Shown: piece after piece, positions 3,906 through 34,748 of the stretch
Layout: every line of letters starts with the position of its first letter
Position numbering within the stretch: the first letter of the stretch is position 1
Virus record (IMG/VR): IMGVR_UViG_2585427735_000020
From: a virus
Taxonomy: Duplodnaviria; Heunggongvirae; Uroviricota; Caudoviricetes
Direction: 5' to 3' (one strand)
DNA: 36,110 bases
Translations under genes and position numbers: made by a program
Notes under the pieces: generated by a model
The model's database searches: none
Seen by the model: only the letters and a program-made list of their open reading frames with translations
Told to the model about the DNA's origin: nothing

Positions 3906-4177
3906 GTATTCGTATTGAAATTGGCGAACGTTATGTCGTTACCAGTGACAGCTTTCAGTTTATTCTCCACGAGAAAAAGAGAGCGGAAAGCGGTAAAAAC
4001 GCCGGTCAGGAATGGCTGGCGGTGGTTGGTTATTACCCGAAATTAAGCCAGCTCGTTTCCGGCCTGATGCATCACGATATTCTGACCGGAAGCGCAAAGT
4101 CTTTTGCTGATTTAAACGCGCAGGTTGAGCAACTCAGCAAGCGTTGTTCAGAGGCTTTTGGCTCATATGACCGTTAA
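3902..4177 (+). CDS. Small early protein (P2 orf83-like), 91 aa
   Basis: Coupled ORF directly upstream of gene A. Confidence 0.5.
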   Translation: MSIRIEIGERYVVTSDSFQFILHEKKRAESGKNAGQEWLAVVGYYPKLSQLVSGLMHHDILTGSAKSFADLNAQVEQLSKRCSEAFGSYDR

Positions 4178-6269
4178 AGCCTCCGGGCATTTTGTCCCTC
4201 CGTCAGTATTTGCCGCAGGCACCGGTGAGACGTTTACCGGTGCTTATGCATGGAACGCGCCACGCGAGGCCGTCGGGCGCGAAAGACCCCTTACACGTGA
4301 CGAGATGCGTCAGGTGCAAGGTGTTTTATCCACGATTAACCGCCTGCCTTACTTTTTGCGCTCGCTGTTTACTTCACGCTATGACTACATCCGGCGCAAT
4401 AAAAGCCCGGTGCACGGGTTTTATTTCCTCACATCCACTTTTCAGCGTCGTTTATGGCCGCGCATTGAGCGTGTGAATCAGCGCCATGAAATGAACACCG
4501 ACGCGTCGTTGCTGTTTCTGGCAGAGCGTGACCACTATGCGCGCCTGCCGGGAATGAATGACAAGGAGCTGAAAAAGTTTGCCGCCCGTATCTCATCGCA
4601 GCTTTTCATGATGTATGAGGAACTCAGCGATGCCTGGGTGGATGCACATGGCGAAAAAGAATCGCTGTTTACGGATGAGGCGCAGGCTCACCTCTATGGT
4701 CATGTTGCTGGCGCTGCACGTGCTTTCAATATTTCCCCGCTTTACTGGAAAAAATACCGTAAAGGACAGATGACCACGAGGCAGGCATATTCTGCCATTG
4801 CCCGTCTGTTTAACGATGAGTGGTGGACTCATCAGCTCAAAGGCCAGCGTATGCGCTGGCATGAGGCGTTACTGATTGCTGTCGGGGAGGTGAATAAAGA
4901 CCGTTCTCCTTATGCCAGTAAACATGCCATTCGTGATGTGCGTGCACGCCGCCAGGCAAATCTGGAATTTCTTAAATCGTGTGACCTTGAAAACAGGGAA
5001 ACCGGCGAGCGCATCGACCTTATCAGTAAGGTGATGGGCAGTATTTCTAATCCTGAAATTCGCCGGATGGAGCTGATGAACACCATTGCCGGTATTGAGC
5101 GTTACGCCGCCGCAGAGGGTGATGTGGGGATGTTTATCACGCTTACCGCGCCGTCAAAGTATCACCCGACACGTCAGGTCGGAAAAGGCGAAAGTAAAAC
5201 CGTCCAGCTAAATCACGGCTGGAACGATGAGGCATTTAATCCAAAGGATGCGCAACGTTATCTCTGCCATATCTGGAGCCTGATGCGCACGGCATTCAAG
5301 GATAATGATTTACAGGTCTACGGTTTGCGTGTCGTCGAGCCACACCACGACGGAACGCCGCACTGGCATATGATGCTTTTTTGTAATCCACGCCAGCGTA
5401 ACCAGATTATCGAAATTATGCGTCGCTATGCGCTCAAAGAGGATGGCGACGAAAGAGGAGCCGCGCGAAACCGTTTTCAGGCAAAACACCTTAACCAGGG
5501 CGGTGCTGCGGGGTATATCGCGAAATACATCTCAAAAAACATCGATGGCTATGCACTGGATGGTCAGCTCGATAACGATACCGGCAGACCGCTGAAAGAC
5601 ACGGCTGCGGCTGTTACCGCATGGGCGTCAACGTGGCGCATCCCACAATTTAAAACGGTTGGTCTGCCGACAATGGGGGCTTACCGTGAACTACGAAAAT
5701 TGCCTCGCGGCGTCAGCATTGCTGATGAGTTTGACGAGCGCGTCGAGGCTGCACGCGCCGCCGCAGACAGTGGTGATTTTGCGTTGTATATCAGCGCGCA
5801 GGGTGGGGCAAATGTCCCGCGCGATTGTCAGACTGTCAGGGTCGCCCGTAGTCCGTCGGATGAAGTTAACGAGTACGAGGAAGAAGTCGAGAGAGTGGTC
5901 GGCATTTACGCGCCGCATCTCGGCGCGCGTCATATTCATATCACCAGAACGACGGACTGGCGCATTGTGCCGAAAGTTCCGGTCGTTGAGCCTTTGACTT
6001 TAAAAAGCGGCATCGCCGCGCCTCGGAGTCCTGTCAATAACTGTGGAAAGCTCACCGGTGGTGATACTTCGTTACCGGCTCCCACGCCTTCTGAGCACGC
6101 CGCAGCAGTGCTTAATCTGGTTGATGACGGTGTTATCGAATGGAATGACCCGGAGGTCGTGAGGGCGCTCAGAGGTGCACTAAAACACGGTCTAAGGACA
6201 CAAAATTATCTGCGAGACACAGCTCGCTCCCTAGATTCATGTTTACTCATGATTGGTGATTTTATATAA
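4167..6269 (+). CDS. A: Rolling-circle replication initiator gpA (HUH endonuclease)
   Basis: About 700 aa; HWHMMLF (HUH-like) and GYIAKYISK tyrosine motif; start taken as the ATG at 4167 (the track's TTG at 4125 is possible). Confidence 0.85.
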   Translation: MTVKASGHFVPPSVFAAGTGETFTGAYAWNAPREAVGRERPLTRDEMRQVQGVLSTINRLPYFLRSLFTSRYDYIRRNKSPVHGFYFLTSTFQRRLWPRIERVNQRHEMNTDASLLFLAERDHYARLPGMNDKELKKFAARISSQLFMMYEELSDAWVDAHGEKESLFTDEAQAHLYGHVAGAARAFNISPLYWKKYRKGQMTTRQAYSAIARLFNDEWWTHQLKGQRMRWHEALLIAVGEVNKDRSPYASKHAIRDVRARRQANLEFLKSCDLENRETGERIDLISKVMGSISNPEIRRMELMNTIAGIERYAAAEGDVGMFITLTAPSKYHPTRQVGKGESKTVQLNHGWNDEAFNPKDAQRYLCHIWSLMRTAFKDNDLQVYGLRVVEPHHDGTPHWHMMLFCNPRQRNQIIEIMRRYALKEDGDERGAARNRFQAKHLNQGGAAGYIAKYISKNIDGYALDGQLDNDTGRPLKDTAAAVTAWASTWRIPQFKTVGLPTMGAYRELRKLPRGVSIADEFDERVEAARAAADSGDFALYISAQGGANVPRDCQTVRVARSPSDEVNEYEEEVERVVGIYAPHLGARHIHITRTTDWRIVPKVPVVEPLTLKSGIAAPRSPVNNCGKLTGGDTSLPAPTPSEHAAAVLNLVDDGVIEWNDPEVVRALRGALKHGLRTQNYLRDTARSLDSCLLMIGDFI

Positions 6270-6451
6270 AAGCGGGGAGTGGTCTTCAAAATGCTCCTGT
6301 AGCATTACGTGTAGACTTATAATAGAAATTATATACAAATCAATAAGTTATTTTTGTTTTGTATTATGTGTTGATGCTTTGGTTTCATAATGTAAAAATT
6401 ATCAGAAATTCTCTGCTTGTAGTTTCGTCATATAACGAAAGGGATTGCTTA

Positions 6452-9400
6452 ATGTTTAATTCTTATACTGAATTTGTAAAGTCTTTGGTATTGGATATTC
6501 GGAAAGGTAAAGACGTTAGTTTTCTTCTGGGGTCAGCCGTGAGTTGCTCGCCGGAGGGGAATGGGGTACCGGGCGTTTCAGGGATGAATGATATTCTGCG
6601 GCAATATATGATTGATTTAGATATTTATGATGGCTTTGAAAGTAACATAATCGGTTTAAGTGAAACTGATAAATATCAAAAAAGTTTCGAATACCTTTTG
6701 AAGGTAGGTGATCAAGATGAAGTTAAAGAAATAATGGCTCTTGCAATGAATAATGCAAGGAGCGGCGACAAATGGTTAATTACTAAATCACTTGATGATT
6801 TTTCAAGGCTTATTTCAGAAACTAGCATTAAAGTAAAATGCATACTTACAACAAATTTTGATCCATTGATTGAAGAGGCATTGTTTAGAGTAAATAGAAA
6901 TTGTAATGTACATAATCTTATTGTAGATCAACCAATTGGTAGCGTTACCAGCTATTCAGGCGAATCCATTCCCGTAGTGCATTTACATGGAGTTTGGGAT
7001 GGAGATACTATGCATACTCAAACTCAGCTTTCTTCATTGAGGAAAAAAATTGAGTTGTCAATAAAAAATATATTGGATACAAGTAAATTATATGTTATTG
7101 GATATGCAGGTTGGGATGATGTTTTTCTACAGGCGTTAAGAAACATCGTCCATGAGTTTCAGCCAAGTTATAATGTTAGATGGGGTTTTTATAAAAACTC
7201 AATTGATGATGTGAGTAAAGAACATTCACGATTGATTGAAATTATTCAACCAGCGCTTGTTAATGCTCGTTTTCAAGGATATGTTGGGGTTGACTGTAAT
7301 ACATACTTTGAAGATGCTTTGGCTGAGATTAGTAAAAAAAAACAATTAAGTAAGTTTGTTGTAAAAAAAACTGGATTACAGCCGATAACAGAAAGCATAG
7401 TTATTTCGCTGAGACCCTATAACCTTTCAGTTGAGCCTGCGCATGATATAATTAGATTAGTAGAGCAAAAAAAAGCCACTGATTATTTAAATAATAACAA
7501 TCATTTTGAGCTTGTTTCTGGTTGGGGATACGGAAAAGCAGGTTTTTTATATTCTTTTATTCATGATGAATTTTATGATTTCACATGTTATTATAGTGAT
7601 GTCAATGGATTGACTGAATCTCGTGATATTGAAGTTAAAATAAAACAGGATATCGGTATCGATATTGCAACCTTCATATCTAATAATGGATTAGGAAAGC
7701 GGATTTTAATTCTTGATAACATAGCCAGACTTCCTCCATCAACTAAAGCTTTCTTTTCTGAGATTGCGAAATTATCATCAGATCTTAGTTCTGGTGTGAA
7801 AGTTATTTTTGTATCAGCGACATGTAACGGGATATGCTCTGGTATAGTGGAATTACAGCCTTTATCTTTAGATGATATAAAGGAGTATATTAAAGTTGGC
7901 ACTGATATTACTGAAATAAAAAGAGAGAAACTTGATAGGTTGTATGAAATAACAAATGGAATACCTTTAAAATTAGATAAGGTTAAAGAGTATTATGAGT
8001 TAATGTCATTTGATGAAGTCCTTGATGCAGGGAATATTGTTGTTTCGGCAGAGGGAACAAATACGGACATTCCACACTACATATCCAAGCAAATAAACGA
8101 GATTAGAAGTGATAATAGAAAACTATATTCATTACTATGCATTTTCTCTATGCTTGAATATGGGGAGAAATTGACAAATATTCGCTCTTATTATTCATCG
8201 TATGATTTTCATTTTGATGATTTCGCAAAACTAGAAAGATATGGTCTGATTTATACAATTACAAAGGATAATTATAAAATATTAAGGATATCACCAGTTG
8301 TTAGTGATTTTGTAAAGCAGGGTATGGATCCTAACCAACGGTATGAACTTGTAAAAAAATCCCTAGGACTTTGTATCGGTAGCGATTGGATGTCAGGGAA
8401 AGTGAGAGTCTCTCCTACAGTGAAGATGATGCTTGAAAGCACGGAGTTTTATCCTGGAAATGTCCATTCAGCTATTAGTTCATACTTTTCATTAATAGAT
8501 ATTAATAATTATGATCGAGAAGTCAAATCATTAATACATGTTTCTATAGGATATTGCATCTTTTTAAAGAGTGCATGTTACTATAAAGAACTCGTCGCAT
8601 TTTCTCGGATGCTTTATTCTAATATTTCTCATTTGGATATTCTTGATAAATTTAGGGCTGCGTATTTTTTGGCTACAAGTTTAAGAATGATTGATGAGGT
8701 TGAACAAAGTGTTGAATTTATTGAGCCTTTAAGTGATGAGTTCGAGGCAAAAGAGTTTTGTCAAAAGGAATATTATTTTAAAATGCTTGATAATATTATG
8801 ATGGCATGCTCTGAATATAATGATGAAAAAGCACGAAAATACGCAATAAAATTAAAAAAGATAGCTCCAAAGTCTTCTAGTTATTATATCAATGCTGAAG
8901 TTCATTTGGCTGACGAATTGTCTCATGGTAAAAGGGTTAATAAGCTTATTTCTCTCGAGAAAAAGTCCCGAGCTGCTGGGTATAACACGCTGGCTAATAA
9001 TATTAGCATTAAACTTCATTATTTGTTTTCTGGTTCATCTTTCAAATATATTGATAATGCCATAAAAAATGAAGGGGGAGTGTATACTAAGGCCAGGGCG
9101 TTACTTGTTAAGTATGAAGAGTTGGTACGTTGCGGAGAGTTTGAAAAAATTGATGCGGAGGGGGTGAGGGAATTAAAGGCCGTTTATGATTATTTGTTCT
9201 TGCAGCGATTAGATGAGCTTTTTAACAGATGTACCGATGTGTTATGGCAGCTTATGAAAGCGTATCGGGATGTTAATGGCTTATACTACTTATTTAAGCG
9301 TGGTTCTGTAATTTGGCGTGTAACCTCATCTTATGATAAAGAGTTAGAATATGCTAAGGAGTTGAATGAGCAACAGTTTGATATCAGTGGAGGAGGTGAT

Positions 9401-9487
9401 GATATGAAATATTTATCAATCAGACTGAGTTTTTTGGCACTAAAGGTGGAGCGAGATAAGTGTCTGATTGATGCTCCAACATTGTAA
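6452..9487 (+). CDS. Cargo protein, 1011 aa: N-terminal SIR2-like domain + STAND-like NTPase core + C-terminal helical repeats (SIR2-STAND/Avs5-like or DSR-like candidate defence protein)
   Basis: ATG 6452 with GAAAGGGA SD; SIR2 motifs FLLGSAVS...GVPG, TTNFD (6848..6862), HLHG (6980..6991), IGYAGWDD; then GWGYGKAG (7520..7543), ILILDN (about 7700..7720), GIPLKL (7958..7975); AT-rich, replaces tin/old between A and cos. Confidence 0.6.
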   Translation: MFNSYTEFVKSLVLDIRKGKDVSFLLGSAVSCSPEGNGVPGVSGMNDILRQYMIDLDIYDGFESNIIGLSETDKYQKSFEYLLKVGDQDEVKEIMALAMNNARSGDKWLITKSLDDFSRLISETSIKVKCILTTNFDPLIEEALFRVNRNCNVHNLIVDQPIGSVTSYSGESIPVVHLHGVWDGDTMHTQTQLSSLRKKIELSIKNILDTSKLYVIGYAGWDDVFLQALRNIVHEFQPSYNVRWGFYKNSIDDVSKEHSRLIEIIQPALVNARFQGYVGVDCNTYFEDALAEISKKKQLSKFVVKKTGLQPITESIVISLRPYNLSVEPAHDIIRLVEQKKATDYLNNNNHFELVSGWGYGKAGFLYSFIHDEFYDFTCYYSDVNGLTESRDIEVKIKQDIGIDIATFISNNGLGKRILILDNIARLPPSTKAFFSEIAKLSSDLSSGVKVIFVSATCNGICSGIVELQPLSLDDIKEYIKVGTDITEIKREKLDRLYEITNGIPLKLDKVKEYYELMSFDEVLDAGNIVVSAEGTNTDIPHYISKQINEIRSDNRKLYSLLCIFSMLEYGEKLTNIRSYYSSYDFHFDDFAKLERYGLIYTITKDNYKILRISPVVSDFVKQGMDPNQRYELVKKSLGLCIGSDWMSGKVRVSPTVKMMLESTEFYPGNVHSAISSYFSLIDINNYDREVKSLIHVSIGYCIFLKSACYYKELVAFSRMLYSNISHLDILDKFRAAYFLATSLRMIDEVEQSVEFIEPLSDEFEAKEFCQKEYYFKMLDNIMMACSEYNDEKARKYAIKLKKIAPKSSSYYINAEVHLADELSHGKRVNKLISLEKKSRAAGYNTLANNISIKLHYLFSGSSFKYIDNAIKNEGGVYTKARALLVKYEELVRCGEFEKIDAEGVRELKAVYDYLFLQRLDELFNRCTDVLWQLMKAYRDVNGLYYLFKRGSVIWRVTSSYDKELEYAKELNEQQFDISGGGDDMKYLSIRLSFLALKVERDKCLIDAPTL

Positions 9488-17551: not shown

Positions 17552-17964
17552 TGATTGTGCTGGTCGTGTTGTTATCGCTGGCGGTGGCGGGGCTGTTTCT
17601 GGCGAAGCATGAAAACGCCAGCCTGCGCGCCTCGCTGGACAGGGCGAACAACGTCGCCAGCGGGCAGCAGACGACCATCACCATGCTGAAAAATCAGCTT
17701 CATGTTGCCCTCACCAGAGCAGACAAAAACGAGCTGGCGCAGGTGGCACTGCGTCAGGAGCTGGAGAACGCCGCGAAGCGTGAAGCACAGCGCGAGAAAA
17801 CCATCACGAGGTTACTTAATGAAAACGAAGATTTTCGCCGCTGGTACGGCGCTGGCCTGCCTGATGCTGTGCGCCGGTTGCACCAGCGCCCGGCCTGCGC
17901 CGACGCCAGTGATTGTCCACAACGCCTGCCCGAAAGTGAGTCTTTGCCCGATGCCGGGCAGTGA
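17539..17964 (+). CDS. lysB: LysB (Rz-like spanin component), 141 aa
   Basis: N-terminal TM helix followed by coiled-coil-like region; 141 aa. Confidence 0.75.
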   Translation: MSKLMIVLVVLLSLAVAGLFLAKHENASLRASLDRANNVASGQQTTITMLKNQLHVALTRADKNELAQVALRQELENAAKREAQREKTITRLLNENEDFRRWYGAGLPDAVRRLHQRPACADASDCPQRLPESESLPDAGQ

Positions 17965-20034: not shown

Positions 20035-20943
20035 ATGCCGATTATCGACCTGAACCAGCTACCTGCACCGGATGTGGTCGAGGAGCTGGACTTTGAAACC
20101 ATTCTTGCCGAACGCAAGGCGACACTGATTTCCCTTTACCCGGAAGACCAGCAGGAGGCGGTCGCCCGTACCCTGACGCTGGAATCCGAGCCTCTCGTCA
20201 AACTGCTGGAGGAAAATGCGTATCGTGAGCTTCTCTGGCGTCAGCGTGTGAATGAGGCCGCACGGGCGGTGATGCTGGCCTGTGCCGCGGGTAATGACCT
20301 TGATGTGATTGGTGCCAATTACAACACCACGCGTCTGACTATCACCCCGGCAGATGATTCGACCATCCCGCCGACACCGGCAGTGATGGAATCTGACACC
20401 GATTATCGTCTGCGTATTCAGCAGGCGTTTGAAGGTTTAAGCGTCGCCGGGTCGGTGGGTGCCTATCAGTATCATGGCCGCAGTGCCGACGGGCGTGTCG
20501 CGGATATCTCTGTCACCAGTCCGTCTCCGGCCTGCGTCACTATCTCTGTGCTGTCACGTGAAAATAACGGCGTCGCATCCGAAGACCTGCTGGCTGTGGT
20601 GCGTAACGCCCTTAATGGCGAGGACGTCAGGCCGGTGGCCGACCGCGTGACCGTGCAGTCTGCCGCCATCGTTGAATACCAGATAAACGCCACGCTTTAC
20701 CTTTACCCTGGTCCCGAAAGCGAACCCATCCGCGCTGCTGCCGTGAAAAAGCTGGAAGCGTATATCACGGCACAGCACCGGCTGGGGCGCGACATCCGTC
20801 TGTCTGCCATTTATGCCGCTTTGCATGTGGAAGGTGTGCAGCGTGTCGAACTGGCTGCACCACTGGCCGACATCGTGCTCAACAGTACGCAGGCGTCTTT
20901 CTGTACCGAATACCGCGTCGTGACCGGAGGCTCGGATGAGTGA
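20035..20943 (+). CDS. J: Baseplate protein gpJ, 302 aa
   Basis: 302 aa; P2 order. Confidence 0.85.
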   Translation: MPIIDLNQLPAPDVVEELDFETILAERKATLISLYPEDQQEAVARTLTLESEPLVKLLEENAYRELLWRQRVNEAARAVMLACAAGNDLDVIGANYNTTRLTITPADDSTIPPTPAVMESDTDYRLRIQQAFEGLSVAGSVGAYQYHGRSADGRVADISVTSPSPACVTISVLSRENNGVASEDLLAVVRNALNGEDVRPVADRVTVQSAAIVEYQINATLYLYPGPESEPIRAAAVKKLEAYITAQHRLGRDIRLSAIYAALHVEGVQRVELAAPLADIVLNSTQASFCTEYRVVTGGSDE

Positions 20944-21465
20944 TTCGCGACTGCTGCCGACCGGCTCATCACCGCTGAGGTCGCCGCCGCAAAAGCCTGT
21001 GCGGAAATTGAAAAAACGCCGGTCAGTATTCGTGAGCAGTGGAACCCGGACACCTGTCCGGCAAATCTGCTGCCGTGGCTGGCGTGGGCGTTTTCGGTCG
21101 ACAGGTGGGATGAAAAGTGGCCGGAAGCGACAAAACGCGCCGTTATCCGCGATGCGTATTTCATCCACTGTCATAAAGGCACAATAGGTGCAATCCGGCG
21201 TGTGGTGGAGCCGCTCGGCTATCTCATCAACGTGACGGAGTGGTGGGAAAACAGTGACCCGCCCGGCACCTTCCGGCTTGATATTGGTGTACTGGAAAGC
21301 GGCATCACAGAGGCAATGTATCAGGAAATGGAACGGCTGATTGCTGATGCCAAACCTGCAAGCCGCCACCTTATTGGCCTGAACATTACCCGGGACATTC
21401 CCGGCTACCTGTTCGCCGGTGGTGTGGCTTACGACGGCGATGTAATTACGGTTTACCCCGGATAA
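20936..21465 (+). pseudogene. I: Baseplate gene I with apparent -1 frameshift near the 5' end
   Basis: ATG 20936 overlaps the J stop, but the native-looking product (...EVAAAKACAEIEKTPVSIREQWNPDTCPANLLPWLAWAFSVDRWDE...VITVYPG) is in the -1 frame from about 20977 to stop 21465; the ATG frame gives an Arg-rich junk ORF; total span equals the P2 gpI length. Confidence 0.6.
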
Positions 21466-21475
21466 GTGAGGAATA

Positions 21476-23797: not shown

Positions 23798-24325
23798 ATG
23801 CAGCATTTGATAAATATAACGGTGGGTAATCCAAAAACGGTTGAACAATATCAATTGACAAAGGACTTTGATGTTGTCTGGTTTTTTTCAGAAGATGGTA
23901 AGAACTGGTACGAAGAACAAAAGTATTTTGCTGATGACACGATAAAAATAGCGTACGACAAAGATAATATTATCCGCTATGTGGAAAAGGATGTGACAGC
24001 TATCAGACCAGATGGATTAAGTGTGGTTGAAGTGGCGGATATTACTGCTAACCGACGGGCGGACATTTCAGGGAACTGGATGTTTAAGGACGGCAAAGTG
24101 ATTAAACGCATTTATACGGCAGAGGAATTGCAGCAGCAGGCAGAAAACCGGAAAGCCAGACTTCTTGCAGATGCTGAATCCGTGATTTTGCCACTGGAGC
24201 GCGCTGTCAGGCTGAACATGGCAACAGATGAGGAGCGTAGCCGACTGGAAGCATGGGAACGCTACAGTGTTCTGGTCAGCCGTGTGGATCCTGCAAATCC
24301 TGAATGGCCGGAAATGCCGCAATAA
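23798..24325 (+). CDS. G: Tail fibre assembly chaperone gpG, 175 aa
   Basis: 175 aa immediately after H. Confidence 0.8.
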
Positions 24326-24360: not shown

Positions 24361-24410
24361 GGCACAGAGTAAAGCCTAATCTGACAGTCCGCTCTGTGCC
24401 AAGAGCGGAC
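24361..24410 (+). terminator. Two overlapping, mutually exclusive 9-bp hairpins downstream of G (possible terminator)
   Basis: GGCACAGAG(24361..24369)/CTCTGTGCC(24392..24400) and GTCCGCTCT(24387..24395)/AGAGCGGAC(24402..24410); no clear U-tract. Confidence 0.3.
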
Positions 24411-24734
24411 GTTACTACTACTCGACCTAAAGTAAAGTAATTGTACTCATTAAATAGTGGTAATTGGGTCTGGTGCTTAATCGAACGAAATCTCATGTTA
24501 GGCGAAAAAAACGTCTGAAAAATCGATTAACACATACACCTGTGTACTATGGCCGTTATTCAATTTAAAAGGAACCATTTCCGATATGATTCACTGTCCA
24601 TAATGTTTTGATTTATTAAAAAAGAGCCTTAGAGTGTGAAACCATTACGTTGAGTGGCGAACACCATTAATAAATTCTGCTTATACTTACAGCATATATT
24701 ATGTTCACGTCATATAACCATGGCAAATAAGATA

Positions 24735-24800: not shown

Positions 24801-25736
24801 GTGGTTACATATAATTCAATGTTGTTACCCCCCCCTAAATCTTGGGACGAATTTGAGGATATGTGCAAAAGTTCATTCCAACTGCGATGGTCCAATCCTA
24901 ATCTGAACAGACATGGACGGTCAGGGCAGCGGCAGGATGGAGTTGATGTATATGGTGATGACTCTCTTGGGCGTTTCGTTGGAATTCAGTGTAAAAATAC
25001 AGTATCAGGAATCAGTACGGCGACAATCGATGATGAATTACTCAAGGCTGAAAAATTTCGCCCAAAAATTACGGTTCTTTACATCGCTACGACAGCGCCC
25101 AGGGATGTTAGCATTCAGCGCTATGTAAGAACACTCAATGATGCCAGACAATTAAAAGGCCTGTTTCCTGTCGATGTGGTTTTCTGGGAGGATATTAGCT
25201 TTGATTTAAGCAAAGACCCAGCTGTACTCAAAATGTACTACCCGCAAATGTTCGAACGACACCAACCGACGAGGGAAGAATTTTTGCGCAAGAGAGATAT
25301 CTCAAATTTGTCGACATTGTTGAATGTTATTGATTTTCATTCAACAATAGACCATTTGCAGTGGGGCGCAAAATACATTCATTCATTAATTATTGAAGAA
25401 TACGATAATATTTTGAACATTTTAAACTCACCTGTTTTTCAACTGAATGATACAGCTTTAAAGAATGTTACAATTGATTTTGCAACGGCCTGGCGTGATC
25501 TAATTATCTTGTTTAGAAAAGCTCCATATAATTATTCAGCACCAAATGATACTTTTAGTTTTATAAATCCCGGTGACCACTGTCGAAATCAGGAGGAAAG
25601 CGATTTATACGACGAAATCACGCATAGCATGAGTAATCTCAAAGATAAAATTAGTACTTTTTGTGACTTTATAAATAATCACTACCATGAAATAAACTTA
25701 ACCGAAACGAGCGCGCAAGCCAGGAAATATTATTAA
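24801..25736 (+). CDS. Cargo protein, 311 aa: Mrr-type PD-(D/E)xK restriction-endonuclease-like N-terminal domain + uncharacterised C-terminal domain
   Basis: GTG start 7 nt after AAAGGA; FEDM...RHGRSGQRQDGVDVYGDD...GRFVGIQCKNT (nt about 24912..24998) resembles the Mrr catalytic core (D...D...QxK); AT-rich, between G and FI. Confidence 0.55.
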   Translation: MVTYNSMLLPPPKSWDEFEDMCKSSFQLRWSNPNLNRHGRSGQRQDGVDVYGDDSLGRFVGIQCKNTVSGISTATIDDELLKAEKFRPKITVLYIATTAPRDVSIQRYVRTLNDARQLKGLFPVDVVFWEDISFDLSKDPAVLKMYYPQMFERHQPTREEFLRKRDISNLSTLLNVIDFHSTIDHLQWGAKYIHSLIIEEYDNILNILNSPVFQLNDTALKNVTIDFATAWRDLIILFRKAPYNYSAPNDTFSFINPGDHCRNQEESDLYDEITHSMSNLKDKISTFCDFINNHYHEINLTETSAQARKYY

Positions 25737-26518
25737 TACTTTTTTCTTAAGGGCTGCACTCATGGCCCTTAACACCGTTAGACTGTCATATTTTGCAATC
25801 GATACGCAGTTAGGTACTTTCTTGAAGTCCGTTCCTCGCTCATAGCTGACATTCAGCTCAATTAAATCGTCCACTTCGCTCCAACAGAAGGCGTAGCTAA
25901 TCATACTGTGTATTAAAGAAAGGAGAAACGATCATGTTGAGTACAAAAAACACGAAAGACCATGATAAGGAAAATATGCGTAGAGTGACTTAGTTTATTG
26001 ATTTAAATAATATTTATGGGGGTAAGTGCTTTGAATAAAAAAACAAAAATTGAGAAGATTTAGCTAGTGCCAAAATAATTTGGACACCGCCCGTCATCAG
26101 ACCCGCTACTACACTTATCACCCCAGCCCAAAAAGTTTCAATGAAACAAGATACATATAGTAGTACAACATGGCGGAATAATTTACTCATAGGCTTCTCC
26201 TTACTGACGTAATCGTTAAGTAACGTTGAGGTAACGGATAAATGCGACTATTGGGAGAGCTGTGATGAGAATTGTAGGCATAGGAATCGAACCTATGGAT
26301 GCACTAGCTAAATTCACTCTTCACGAATTATACAGCATTGTAGTGAGTTTGTAAATACACGCCCCAAAAGTCAATCAGTCCGATCCATGAATGTTGTGTC
26401 AGTACTACTAAAGTTAAACATGCTAAAATAGGTTCCCAATATTCGTGGGTACAATCACTATCTGTGTAACTGGCGGAAGCGCTGGCATAACGACGATGCC
26501 TATTCGGGGGGCTTTAAT

Positions 26519-27385
26519 ATGGTCCGTTTTAACTTACTAGAAAATGCGTTGGATTCAGTGGAAACCGGGCTGGACTACTTTAACAAAGCGCTAGAAGGGC
26601 ATGATCGACGTGACTACAAACAGTGCCTGCTTAACCTCTTTCAGGCCGCTGAGCTATTGTTGAAGGCCGTAGTTTCGCGCAATGGGTCTGGAGCGATTTT
26701 TAATCCAGCATCGCTTCAAGAAAAATGTGTGGATCCGGCGCATCCAACCGAGTCAGAATTACACCAGTGTAAATCTGTCAACGTCAACCAGCTTTGTAAG
26801 CTGTTAAAGACATATTACCCAGCCGAATTTTCTGAATCTGCATTACAAATGATGAAAACGGTGGGTCAGTTGCGTAATAACCTTCAGCATTTTGCCCTTG
26901 AGGTTCGTCCGCAAGAACTGGCAATGCAACTGAGTGAACTGTACCAACAAATTTTTCGTCCCGCATTCGTCATAATTCAGTCAGATGAGACCGAAAATTC
27001 ATGGAACTCTGATTTACGTCAAGACATCATCGCTCTTGAGCAACAATTCCTTGATATAACTGTTAACCAGGAATACACCCTTGCACTTTGTCCCGTTTGT
27101 GAGAGTTTTTCACATTTTATCCTTTACCAAGGTGAAAGCTTTCCGGCACGGACTCACTGTATCTGTTGTGGTTTCAGCCTGAATAATCTGCAAACTTGGG
27201 ATTTTCAGGAATGTCCTGAATGTAGTGTCCCATCCGTAATTTATTTACCGGAACAAAGGGTCGGTGTCTGTCTCTGGTATAAATGTGAATACAGCAAGAT
27301 GGATGGTTTTGTTCCTATGGAGCCTTGTGAATGTGGTGCATTCCGGATGGAAGGTCATTGCAGTAACTGCGATCTTGAGGAATAG
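26519..27385 (+). CDS. Cargo protein, 288 aa: HEPN-like helical N-terminal domain (Rx4H) + C-terminal multi zinc-ribbon domain
   Basis: ATG 26519 after a G-rich SD; LRNNLQH at 26873..26890; CPVC, CICC, CPEC, Cx4C, CEC, CSNC pairs across 27089..27370. Confidence 0.55.
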   Translation: MVRFNLLENALDSVETGLDYFNKALEGHDRRDYKQCLLNLFQAAELLLKAVVSRNGSGAIFNPASLQEKCVDPAHPTESELHQCKSVNVNQLCKLLKTYYPAEFSESALQMMKTVGQLRNNLQHFALEVRPQELAMQLSELYQQIFRPAFVIIQSDETENSWNSDLRQDIIALEQQFLDITVNQEYTLALCPVCESFSHFILYQGESFPARTHCICCGFSLNNLQTWDFQECPECSVPSVIYLPEQRVGVCLWYKCEYSKMDGFVPMEPCECGAFRMEGHCSNCDLEE

Positions 27386-27747
27386 TAAAATCGTCCGATG
27401 AGAATGTACAGCAGCCTGGTCGATGATTTCTTGATGAATCGCTGAATTATCCGGTATTACTTGACAACTAAATCGCACATTTCTGTTTCTGGCAATTTGA
27501 AAGGTTTACTCTATGCCCCAGAATTCAGCACATACATAAAAACACCATTTCAGAACGCGTCTTGATCCAAAGAACGACTGTATGATAGATAGGCGTCGTC
27601 GTGAGGACAGGAATGATCTACCCCCCGTTATTCATACAGAATGCTGTTAGTAATGTCCGCAGATCGCTCAAAGCAGACTGTCAGATTTGATAGCGTTTGG
27701 GCTATGTAAGTAGCCAGTTGGAGAATGAGTGAGTGCAAATCAGGACT

Positions 27748-27789
27748 GGCGGGGGGAATGGCCGCCCTTTTTTTTTTTTTTTTTTTTTT
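27748..27789 (+). terminator. GC hairpin followed by a 22-nt poly(T) tract (terminator-like, at the cargo-2 / late-operon boundary)
   Basis: GGCGG (27748..27752), 9-nt loop, CCGCC (27762..27766), then T x22 (27768..27789). Confidence 0.45.
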
Positions 27790-27873
27790 ATCCACTGACC
27801 AGCCAGGTCAAATAGCGTCTCATGCACTGCCCAACAGAAAATAGTTGCACCCATTAACCACGGAGTTAAACGG

Positions 27874-29064
27874 ATGAGTGACTATCATCACGGCGTGCAG
27901 GTGCTGGAGATTAACGACGGCACCCGCGTCATTTCCACCGTATCCACTGCCATTGTCGGCATGGTCTGCACGGCCAGCGATGCGGATGCGGGAACCTTCC
28001 CCCTCAATAAACCTGTGCTGATTACCAATGTGCAGAGCGCAATTGCAAAGGCCGGTAAAAAAGGCACGCTGGCGGCATCGTTGCAGGCCATCGCTGACCA
28101 GTCAAAACCGGTCACCGTTGTCGTGCGCGTGGAAGACGGCACCGGCGACGACGAAGAAACGAAACTCGCGCAGACTGTTTCCAATATCATCGGCACCACC
28201 GACGAAAACGGTCAGTACACCGGACTGAAAGCCCTGCTGGCGGCGGAGTCGGTAACCGGTGTTAAACCGCGTATTCTCGGTGTGCCGGGACTGGATACCA
28301 AAGAGGTGGCTGTTGCACTGGCATCCGTCTGTCAGAAGCTGCGCGCTTTCGGGTATATCAGCGCATGGGGCTGTAAAACCATTTCCGAGGTGAAAGCCTA
28401 CCGCCAGAATTTCAGCCAGCGTGAGCTGATGGTCATCTGGCCGGATTTCCTCGCATGGGATACGGTCACCAGTACCACCGCCACCGCGTATGCCACCGCC
28501 CGTGCGCTGGGGCTGCGCGCTAAAATCGACCAGGAGCAGGGCTGGCATAAAACGCTGTCCAATGTCGGGGTGAACGGTGTTACCGGCATCAGCGCCTCTG
28601 TATTCTGGGATTTGCAGGAGTCCGGCACCGATGCTGACCTGCTTAACGAGTCAGGCGTCACAACGCTGATTCGCCGTGACGGTTTCCGATTCTGGGGTAA
28701 CCGTACCTGCTCTGATGACCCGCTGTTCCTCTTTGAAAACTACACTCGCACCGCGCAGGTGCTGGCCGACACGATGGCTGAGGCGCACATGTGGGCGGTG
28801 GACAAGCCCATCACCGCAACGCTGATTCGCGACATCGTTGACGGCATCAATGCCAAATTCCGTGAGCTGAAAACAAACGGCTATATCGTGGATGCGACCT
28901 GCTGGTTCAGCGAAGAATCCAACGATGCGGAAACCCTTAAGGCCGGAAAACTGTATATCGACTACGACTATACTCCGGTGCCTCCTCTTGAAAACCTGAC
29001 CCTGCGCCAGCGTATTACCGATAAATACCTGGCAAATCTGGTCACCTCGGTTAACAGCAATTAA
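27874..29064 (+). CDS. FI: Contractile tail sheath protein gpFI, 396 aa
   Basis: 396 aa; GGAG SD; P2 order. Confidence 0.9.
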   Translation: MSDYHHGVQVLEINDGTRVISTVSTAIVGMVCTASDADAGTFPLNKPVLITNVQSAIAKAGKKGTLAASLQAIADQSKPVTVVVRVEDGTGDDEETKLAQTVSNIIGTTDENGQYTGLKALLAAESVTGVKPRILGVPGLDTKEVAVALASVCQKLRAFGYISAWGCKTISEVKAYRQNFSQRELMVIWPDFLAWDTVTSTTATAYATARALGLRAKIDQEQGWHKTLSNVGVNGVTGISASVFWDLQESGTDADLLNESGVTTLIRRDGFRFWGNRTCSDDPLFLFENYTRTAQVLADTMAEAHMWAVDKPITATLIRDIVDGINAKFRELKTNGYIVDATCWFSEESNDAETLKAGKLYIDYDYTPVPPLENLTLRQRITDKYLANLVTSVNSN

Positions 29065-34576: not shown

Positions 34577-34604
34577 TAAAAAATAAGCCCGTGTAAGGGA
34601 GATT
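34577..34604. repeat. attR core, 28-bp direct repeat identical to attL
   Basis: Exact copy of 476..503; forms the 3' terminator end of the cyaR sRNA. Confidence 0.85.
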
Positions 34605-34664
34605 ACACAGGCTAAGGAGGTGGTTCCTGGTACAGCTAGCATTTTATGGGTTATGTTTTTCAGC
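34578..34664 (-). ncRNA. cyaR: CyaR (RyeE) Hfq-dependent small RNA
   Basis: Minus-strand sequence GCTGAAAAACATAACCCATAAAATGCTAGCTGTACCAGGAACCACCTCCTTAGCCTGTGTAATCTCCCTTACACGGGCTTATTTTTT matches CyaR as I recall it; 3' end overlaps the att core. Confidence 0.6.
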
Positions 34665-34748
34665 GAAACGGATGATAACCTTAATAAATGCAGCTGTATG
34701 TGATCGGTTTCTAAGAATTTTCCATCCGGGAAAAATAATCGAAATTAA

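Follow-up and report, generated by a model that had tools for sequence, protein, structure and literature searches.

Results

Layout of the prophage and the position of its cargo

We analysed a stretch of 36,110 nucleotides, referred to below as the window, which is a P2-like prophage. The features that frame the variable DNA between the tail fibre assembly gene G and the tail sheath gene FI, together with one gene at the right prophage end, are as follows.

ends at 24325: gene G (tail fibre assembly)
24378..24417, no strand: core of the left inverted repeat, just 3' of G, which aligns with the 'left inverted repeat' of AJ512685
24801-25736, + strand: cargo ORF, 311 aa, from the ORF list
26519-27385, + strand: cargo ORF, 288 aa, HEPN-like, from the ORF list
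27648..27747, no strand: right inverted repeat, a conserved backbone segment, identified by column conservation and annotated in AJ512685 and related records
27874..29064, + strand: FI, tail sheath gene, first of the F operon
34581-34666, - strand: CyaR/RyeE sRNA gene (Rfam, 100.7 bits)

The presence of CyaR at the right prophage end is consistent with integration beside cyaR. The 288-aa cargo protein matched PADLOC PDC-S64 (3.7e-21) and also HEC-08 and DUF3644. A HEPN-like R-x4-H motif (RNNLQH) and a C-terminus rich in Cys were present, and the assembly index lists exactly this protein in 622 blocks. We regard it as a probable anti-phage candidate, as yet uncharacterised. The 311-aa protein had no Pfam or PADLOC match. 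A second variable region, at 4125-9487, is AT-rich, contains two large ORFs (714 aa and 1042 aa) and has A8-A9 runs at 7334-7474; it is probably the cargo of the tin/old-equivalent hotspot.

Positions 24378-24417 are complementary to 27648-27687 at 80%, and the two repeats, identified as such from the GenBank annotations of AJ512676-AJ512685, bracket the variable DNA between G and FI. Both imperfect inverted repeats have an invariant core, AATCTGACAGT, in common. As a matter of conjecture, they could pair on a read-through transcript of the + strand, with the cargo looped out between them (an RNase III-type processing site would be one such case), or could act as candidate recombination sites for cargo exchange.

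Column conservation, calculated over 69 distinct sequences with many different cargos, rose sharply from about 0.45 to >0.9 at 27655-27664. Because homology among phages with different cargo starts at these positions, the terminator described below is part of the conserved backbone and lies inside the boundary. It had been proposed in the initial annotation that a long T tract further downstream may mark the insertion junction of the cargo. Comparison of the G-FI interval across different cargos places the junction elsewhere: judged from these alignments, the true cargo junction is the annotated right inverted repeat, 105-120 nt upstream of the tract.

Other interpretations of the conserved segment of about 100 nt upstream of the terminator were considered and rejected. 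An sRNA ending at the terminator is not favored, as there is no sigma-70-like promoter on the + strand inside the segment, the fold z-score is only about -2 on either strand, and the segment is the annotated right inverted repeat. An ORF of 38 aa that starts from an ATG inside the repeat has no usable Shine-Dalgarno spacing, as assessed by eye, and crosses both the terminator and the promoter. An Rfam search over 27350-27900 returned nothing credible (best E-values 2.8-6.9).

A 22-nt T tract follows an interrupted hairpin

Between the right inverted repeat and FI, the window has a GC-rich hairpin followed by a homopolymer.

27748-27752, + strand: GGCGG, by direct reading
27753-27761, + strand: 9-nt spacer GGGGAATGG, by direct reading
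27762-27766, + strand: CCGCC, followed by C at 27767, by direct reading
27748..27767, + strand: degraded terminator hairpin GGCGGGGGGAATGGCCGCCC, from alignments, the allele table and folding
27768..27789, + strand: T22 tract, in place of the canonical T-rich tail TTTTCTTTATCTGTTGTTTC

A run of 22 T residues at exactly 27768-27789 was found both by direct reading and by script, and the order of elements in the window is CAGGAC, T, GGCGG, GGGGAATGG, CCGCC, C, T(22), ATCCACTGACCAGCCAGGTCAAATAG. The initial description of this site as a perfect T22 after GGCGG-N9-CCGCC is thus borne out by the letters at 27748-27789. The variant hairpin motif GGCGGGGGGAATGG accompanies T22 in the window allele. 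A script found no other homopolymer above 9 nt in the window, and only one other run of at least 12 was found in 1.19 Mb of related loci. By our own arithmetic, a run of at least 22 is expected about 1e-8 times by chance in 36 kb, so the tract is not a chance occurrence.

The hairpin itself was weak. The stem of minimum free energy, GGG.GG/CC.CCC, had a predicted energy of -9.1 kcal/mol and was no better than shuffled sequences (z = +0.16). It contains five GC pairs, with either a 1x1 G-G mismatch or a 9-nt loop, and a scan with the terminator consensus detected it only via G-T pairs. The tract begins directly 3' of the stem, at the position of the U-rich tract of a Rho-independent terminator.

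Related phages have a canonical terminator at this site

In relatives, the same site contains a regular terminator hairpin, GGCGGGC-GAATT-GCCCGC(C/A), followed by TTTTCTTTATCTGTTGTTTC. This canonical allele was present in about 100 IMG/VR P2-like contigs, in phage Wphi and in about 740 complete E. coli genomes. In alignments, the reading GGCGGGCGAATTGCCCGC(C/A), TTTTCTTTATCTGTTGTTTC and then ATCCACTGACC was shared by Wphi, by a second P2-like phage and by an ETEC chromosome that carries the cargo of the window, and the core of the canonical tail is TTTTCTTT. NCBI draft contigs encoding the identical 288-aa cargo protein had the canonical terminator in five of five cases. The canonical stem consists of 6-8 bp, GC, with a 5-nt loop; predicted energies ranged from -13.7 to -19.1 kcal/mol and z-scores from -3.2 to -4.8. 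In the consensus scan, the canonical element was the only strong terminator-like site between cargo and FI.

On these alignments, we take 27748-27789 of the window to be the orthologue of a Rho-independent terminator that is conserved in P2-like phages. The proposal in the initial annotation of a strong intrinsic terminator therefore holds for the site, which is orthologous to a conserved canonical terminator, and fails for the word strong, as the hairpin in the window (-9.1 kcal/mol) is equivalent to shuffled sequences. Across 20 distinct alleles of the stem, 92.5% of cells were paired, a fraction that is not above that of shuffles. In five stem pairs just one of the two sides varied, which yields G-U wobble in the + strand, and there were no compensatory double changes among the 20 alleles. 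This pattern of one-sided wobble is consistent with a + strand RNA hairpin without proving one.

Both cargo ORFs are on the + strand, and the terminator lies 3' of this same-strand unit; cargo transcripts (24801..27385, +) would head toward it. The likely role of the terminator would be to stop + strand cargo transcripts before the tail operon. Given a conserved terminator between the Z/fun cargo and the late promoter PF, insulation of PF from cargo read-through is a reasonable function to suppose. In P2 itself, fun(Z) is on the opposite strand, and the hairpin is partly degenerate (GGTGAGC/GCCCGCC). One contig (IMGVR_UViG_3300045988_109904; L066:1-160) has the right repeat and the canonical terminator followed by unrelated DNA rather than by PF and FI, and this unrelated DNA carries another GC hairpin, AAAACCCCCAGCTAGGCTGGGGGTT. 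The module of repeat plus terminator therefore occurs in at least one other context.

Changes from near relatives are clustered and directional

We compared the window with its closest relative, IMGVR_UViG_3300011560_000038, which has the same ends. There were 22 differences in 14.28 kb, and 14 of these fell within 27754-27789, a cluster of 14 changes in 36 nt between otherwise nearly identical sequences. In the remainder of this relative, 9 and 5 differences were spread over another 8.8 and 10.4 kb. For two NCBI drafts (L125 and L126), comparison over 5.87 kb showed no differences from the window other than the cluster, a 2-nt deletion and one SNP.

The changes had a consistent direction. Each of the six non-T bases of the canonical tail had become T, and hairpin and tail together were 3 nt longer. 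Read on the + strand, 10 of the 11 substitutions matched the preceding parental base, including all four in the hairpin. A GGC at 27748-27750 lies inside the inverted repeat of the terminator; the first change is at 27754, so that the changes start 4 nt past the GGC and span 36 nt.

The allele was absent elsewhere in the collections searched. Exact-pattern scans for the T-run and the variant hairpin gave no matches in viral, GTDB-genome and metagenome collections, and a 39-mer of the variant hairpin had no match among 5,426 complete E. coli genomes. Of the 740 complete E. coli genomes that share this PF flank, none had the T22 allele, and their best match (89-91%) was the canonical tail. Among the assemblies searched, the window allele was confined to one draft. 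The suggestion that the length of the tract could vary was not upheld, as there were no length variants across the collections searched and the single other instance was also exactly T22.

That other instance is in a contig (L050; IMG 2585427730) with a different cargo and a different parent allele, having an A before GGCGG and ATCCCC after the tail; its sequence here is GGCGGGGGGAATTGCCCCCC followed by T22 and C. Differences from its relative L082 numbered two over 3 kb of cargo, followed by 12 packed into 36 nt, and both the match to the preceding base and the confinement to about 40 nt held here as well. A third contig (L089; IMG 2545824719), which has the same cargo as the window, contained a partial version of the change, GGCGGGGGG / GGCGGGGGGAATT, with a normal tail. 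We considered the possibility that the window allele descended from this partial allele. This was ruled out, as the window is closer to L046, which has the canonical allele (99.85% identity), than to L089 (98.4%). Because L089 is the more distant of the two, the change from GGGCG to GGGGGG is recurrent and not inherited.

The tract overlaps the predicted activator site of PF

The T-rich tail lies next to elements of PF, the late promoter of the F operon, that can be placed in the window by homology to P2.

27778..27806, + strand: equivalent of the PF activator binding site, transferred from the P2 annotation via a CAAATAG-anchored alignment
27784-27786 and 27799-27801, + strand: activator half-sites, the TGT position (here TTT) and CCA, respectively
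27848..27850, + strand: predicted PF transcription start, by homology to the annotated P2 start

In the P2 record (NC_001895), positions 17555-17583 are labelled 'activator binding site; activation of pF promoter', and the F operon start is placed at 17626-17628. In P2, the activator site starts two bases past the TTTTCTTTA of the terminator, and the canonical terminator abuts the activator site. Deletion analyses of PF reportedly showed that the region around -64 to -69 is required. With CAAATAG as the reference point, TGT-N12-CCA falls at identical positions in P2 and in Wphi-type phages, among them close relatives of the window. The window reads TTT-N12-CCA at 27784-27801, and thus lacks a dyad like TGT-N12-ACA, the consensus of Ogr-dependent promoters (PMC3931495). 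At 5 of the 12 overlapping positions, in the distal half of the annotated activator site, the window differs from the canonical sequence. If real, the T22 allele would, at face value, weaken the hairpin and erase the predicted TGT half-site of the PF activator.

Comparison of P2 (L104:4040-4100), L105, L027 and L048 with the window revealed two types of sequence upstream of PF, a P2 type, CCGGTGGTTGTGCTGTCGATTAGCCAACCGGGACAAATAG, and a Wphi type, TCTGTTGTTTCATCCACTGACCAGCCAGGTCAAATAG. The break between the two types falls exactly after the TTTTCTTTA of the terminator.

The source assembly has other private changes

The window was 100% identical over 12,319 nt to a draft contig, JOQC01000013.1 (GCA_000713905.1), in which T22 occupies record positions 74598-74619. 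A literature search on the accession GCA_000713905.1 gave no matches. We listed the changes private to the window and a frameshift in a structural gene.

12538, 19001, 22737, 26383 and 33246: private SNPs
26222: private deletion of AC
2231-2235: private 5-nt insertion of GATGC
20936-21475: baseplate gene I, with a single-T deletion at 20975 that causes a frameshift

When polarised with an outgroup, all five private SNPs were transversions (A>C, A>C, C>A, C>A, T>G), and three of the five lengthened an adjacent homopolymer. The private changes of the nearest relative, in comparison, were transitions only. In gene I, the window reads CACCGCTGAGG where 44 related loci read CACCGCTTGAGG (TT), and the source annotation of this gene is just an 86-aa fragment. 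The frameshift indicates either a defective prophage or another assembly error. The other private changes of the window look like errors, and the source assembly looks error-prone.

Discussion

Origin of the T22 allele

Our preferred explanation, and in our judgment a probable one, is that T22 and the odd hairpin are a base-calling or assembly smear in GCA_000713905.1 over a real, conserved terminator. Illumina sequencing is subject to sequence-specific errors that are triggered by GGC and by inverted repeats or terminators, and the resulting miscalls match the preceding base and occur within about 40 nt downstream (Nakamura et al. 2011; PMC3141275). The window has each of these properties: an upstream GGC and inverted repeat no more than about 10 nt from the first change, miscalls that match the preceding base, and an extent of no more than about 40 nt. 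Bases after the GGC-rich inverted repeat would have been replaced by the preceding base in draft JOQC01000013.1. We judge this explanation most likely because the changes are clustered and directional, the allele is absent elsewhere, L050 and L089 provide parallels, the other private changes resemble errors, and two elements are damaged at once; the loss, at face value, of both the hairpin and the TGT half-site is counted in its favor. The initial annotation had allowed that the length of the tract might be an assembly artefact, and this is now the reading that we favor for an allele limited to one draft. Some observations do not fit easily. Sequence-specific errors are normally specific to one strand and are out-voted in the consensus, yet the whole 36-nt path survived. 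Only this one hairpin was affected in the 36-kb window. In addition, the frameshift in gene I could equally reflect a genuinely decaying prophage that tolerates a real lesion in PF. The equal length of T22 in two assemblies could, we speculate, come from a de Bruijn k-mer of 23, which would give a run of k-1.

The allele could instead be a real mutation, without selected function, that scrambled the terminator and promoter-proximal region of a decaying, defective prophage; the hairpin would be weaker, the U-tract perfect and the upstream PF half-site dead. We regard this as unlikely. The allele is, after all, present in the assembly, and the same prophage has a frameshift in the essential gene I, so that loss of PF activation would cost nothing more. 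Hairpins and T-rich tracts are also plausible trouble spots for replication, which would lend a real mutation some general plausibility. However, we know of no in vivo process by which six scattered non-T bases would become T, and a hairpin be rewritten, inside 36 nt while 14 kb stays almost untouched. Slippage does not remove six interspersed bases at nearly constant length. The same complex outcome, with the same T22 length, recurs in the unrelated draft L050 but in none of the 740 complete genomes, and the other private changes of the window have a spectrum resembling that of errors. It is a good deal less probable still that T22 is both real and recurrent, the tails in the window and L050 having been homopolymerised by a directional mutational process (for example, lagging synthesis that copies the preceding base). 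Each such event would have cost PF its Ogr half-site and so left the tail operon locked off. A selected function, either as a phase-variable tract at -60 to -81 of PF or as a 'super-terminator' that shields PF from the cargo, seems to us highly improbable. In its favor, other bacteria have long homopolymers as classic contingency loci, the tract and the activator site overlap, and a perfect U-tract favors termination. Against these points, there was no length polymorphism in the collections searched and both instances are exactly 22, every other carrier of the identical cargo that we examined has the canonical terminator, and the hairpin is weakened rather than strengthened. Furthermore, the TGT half-site is lost whatever the length of the tract, and a change in length could therefore not restore activation of PF. 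We assign next to no probability to the T-run being a scar or a poly(A)-like tail of an inserting element at the cargo junction. The run does sit between the cargo and FI, but the preceding stretch of 90-110 nt (27655-27747) and the terminator are common to phages whose cargos are unrelated, the real boundary is the annotated right inverted repeat, and carriers of the same cargo lack the T-run.

Implications

The elements that surround the tract, namely intrinsic terminators, the P2 PF activator site and a Z/fun hotspot flanked by inverted repeats, are already established. T22 is the only unusual element here, and it is probably not real. The case calls for caution, as a conserved terminator and a promoter element lie where a public draft shows this striking homopolymer, which is best explained as an error. 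To read it as a contingency locus, as a super-terminator or as the scar of an insertion would be a mistake. Were the allele real, this prophage could probably not activate its tail operon.

The comparisons also fix the right edge of the P2 Z/fun hotspot, which runs from the right inverted repeat to an intrinsic terminator and then to a PF activator site that overlaps the T-rich tail. This anatomy of the edge helps to delimit cargo in P2-like prophages.

Comparison with known systems

Homopolymeric contingency tracts resemble the window allele in placing a long mononucleotide run beside a promoter element. They differ from it in that the allele had no length variation in the collections searched and was absent from other carriers of the locus. 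The Illumina sequence-specific errors (PMC3141275) share with the window their trigger motifs, miscalls to the preceding base and a reach of about 40 nt in one direction. Those errors were described at the level of reads, whereas in the window an entire path of errors, with a net gain of 3 nt, would have had to enter the consensus.

The relatives of the window are like the Rho-independent terminators of enterobacteria, with a GC stem of 6-8 bp, a 5-nt loop, an immediate U-rich tail and + strand genes upstream. In contrast, the stem in the window is interrupted, and its 22-nt perfect homopolymer tail far exceeds natural U-tracts. Relatives likewise match P2 PF and its Ogr/Delta site (the TGT-N12-ACA class, centred near -55), having TGT-N12-CCA with the same spacing to CAAATAG and the start, whereas the upstream TGT is TTT in the window.

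Hotspots of P2-like phages as a concept have been treated by Rousset et al. 2022 (PMC9122126). For the Z/fun region, we used GenBank annotation to compare the window with records AJ512676-AJ512685 of Nilsson, Karlsson and Haggard-Ljungquist 2004. Although these records are without the 311-aa and 288-aa cargo of the window, and annotate the repeats and not the terminator, the order is the same: G, left repeat, cargo, right repeat, terminator, PF and FI.
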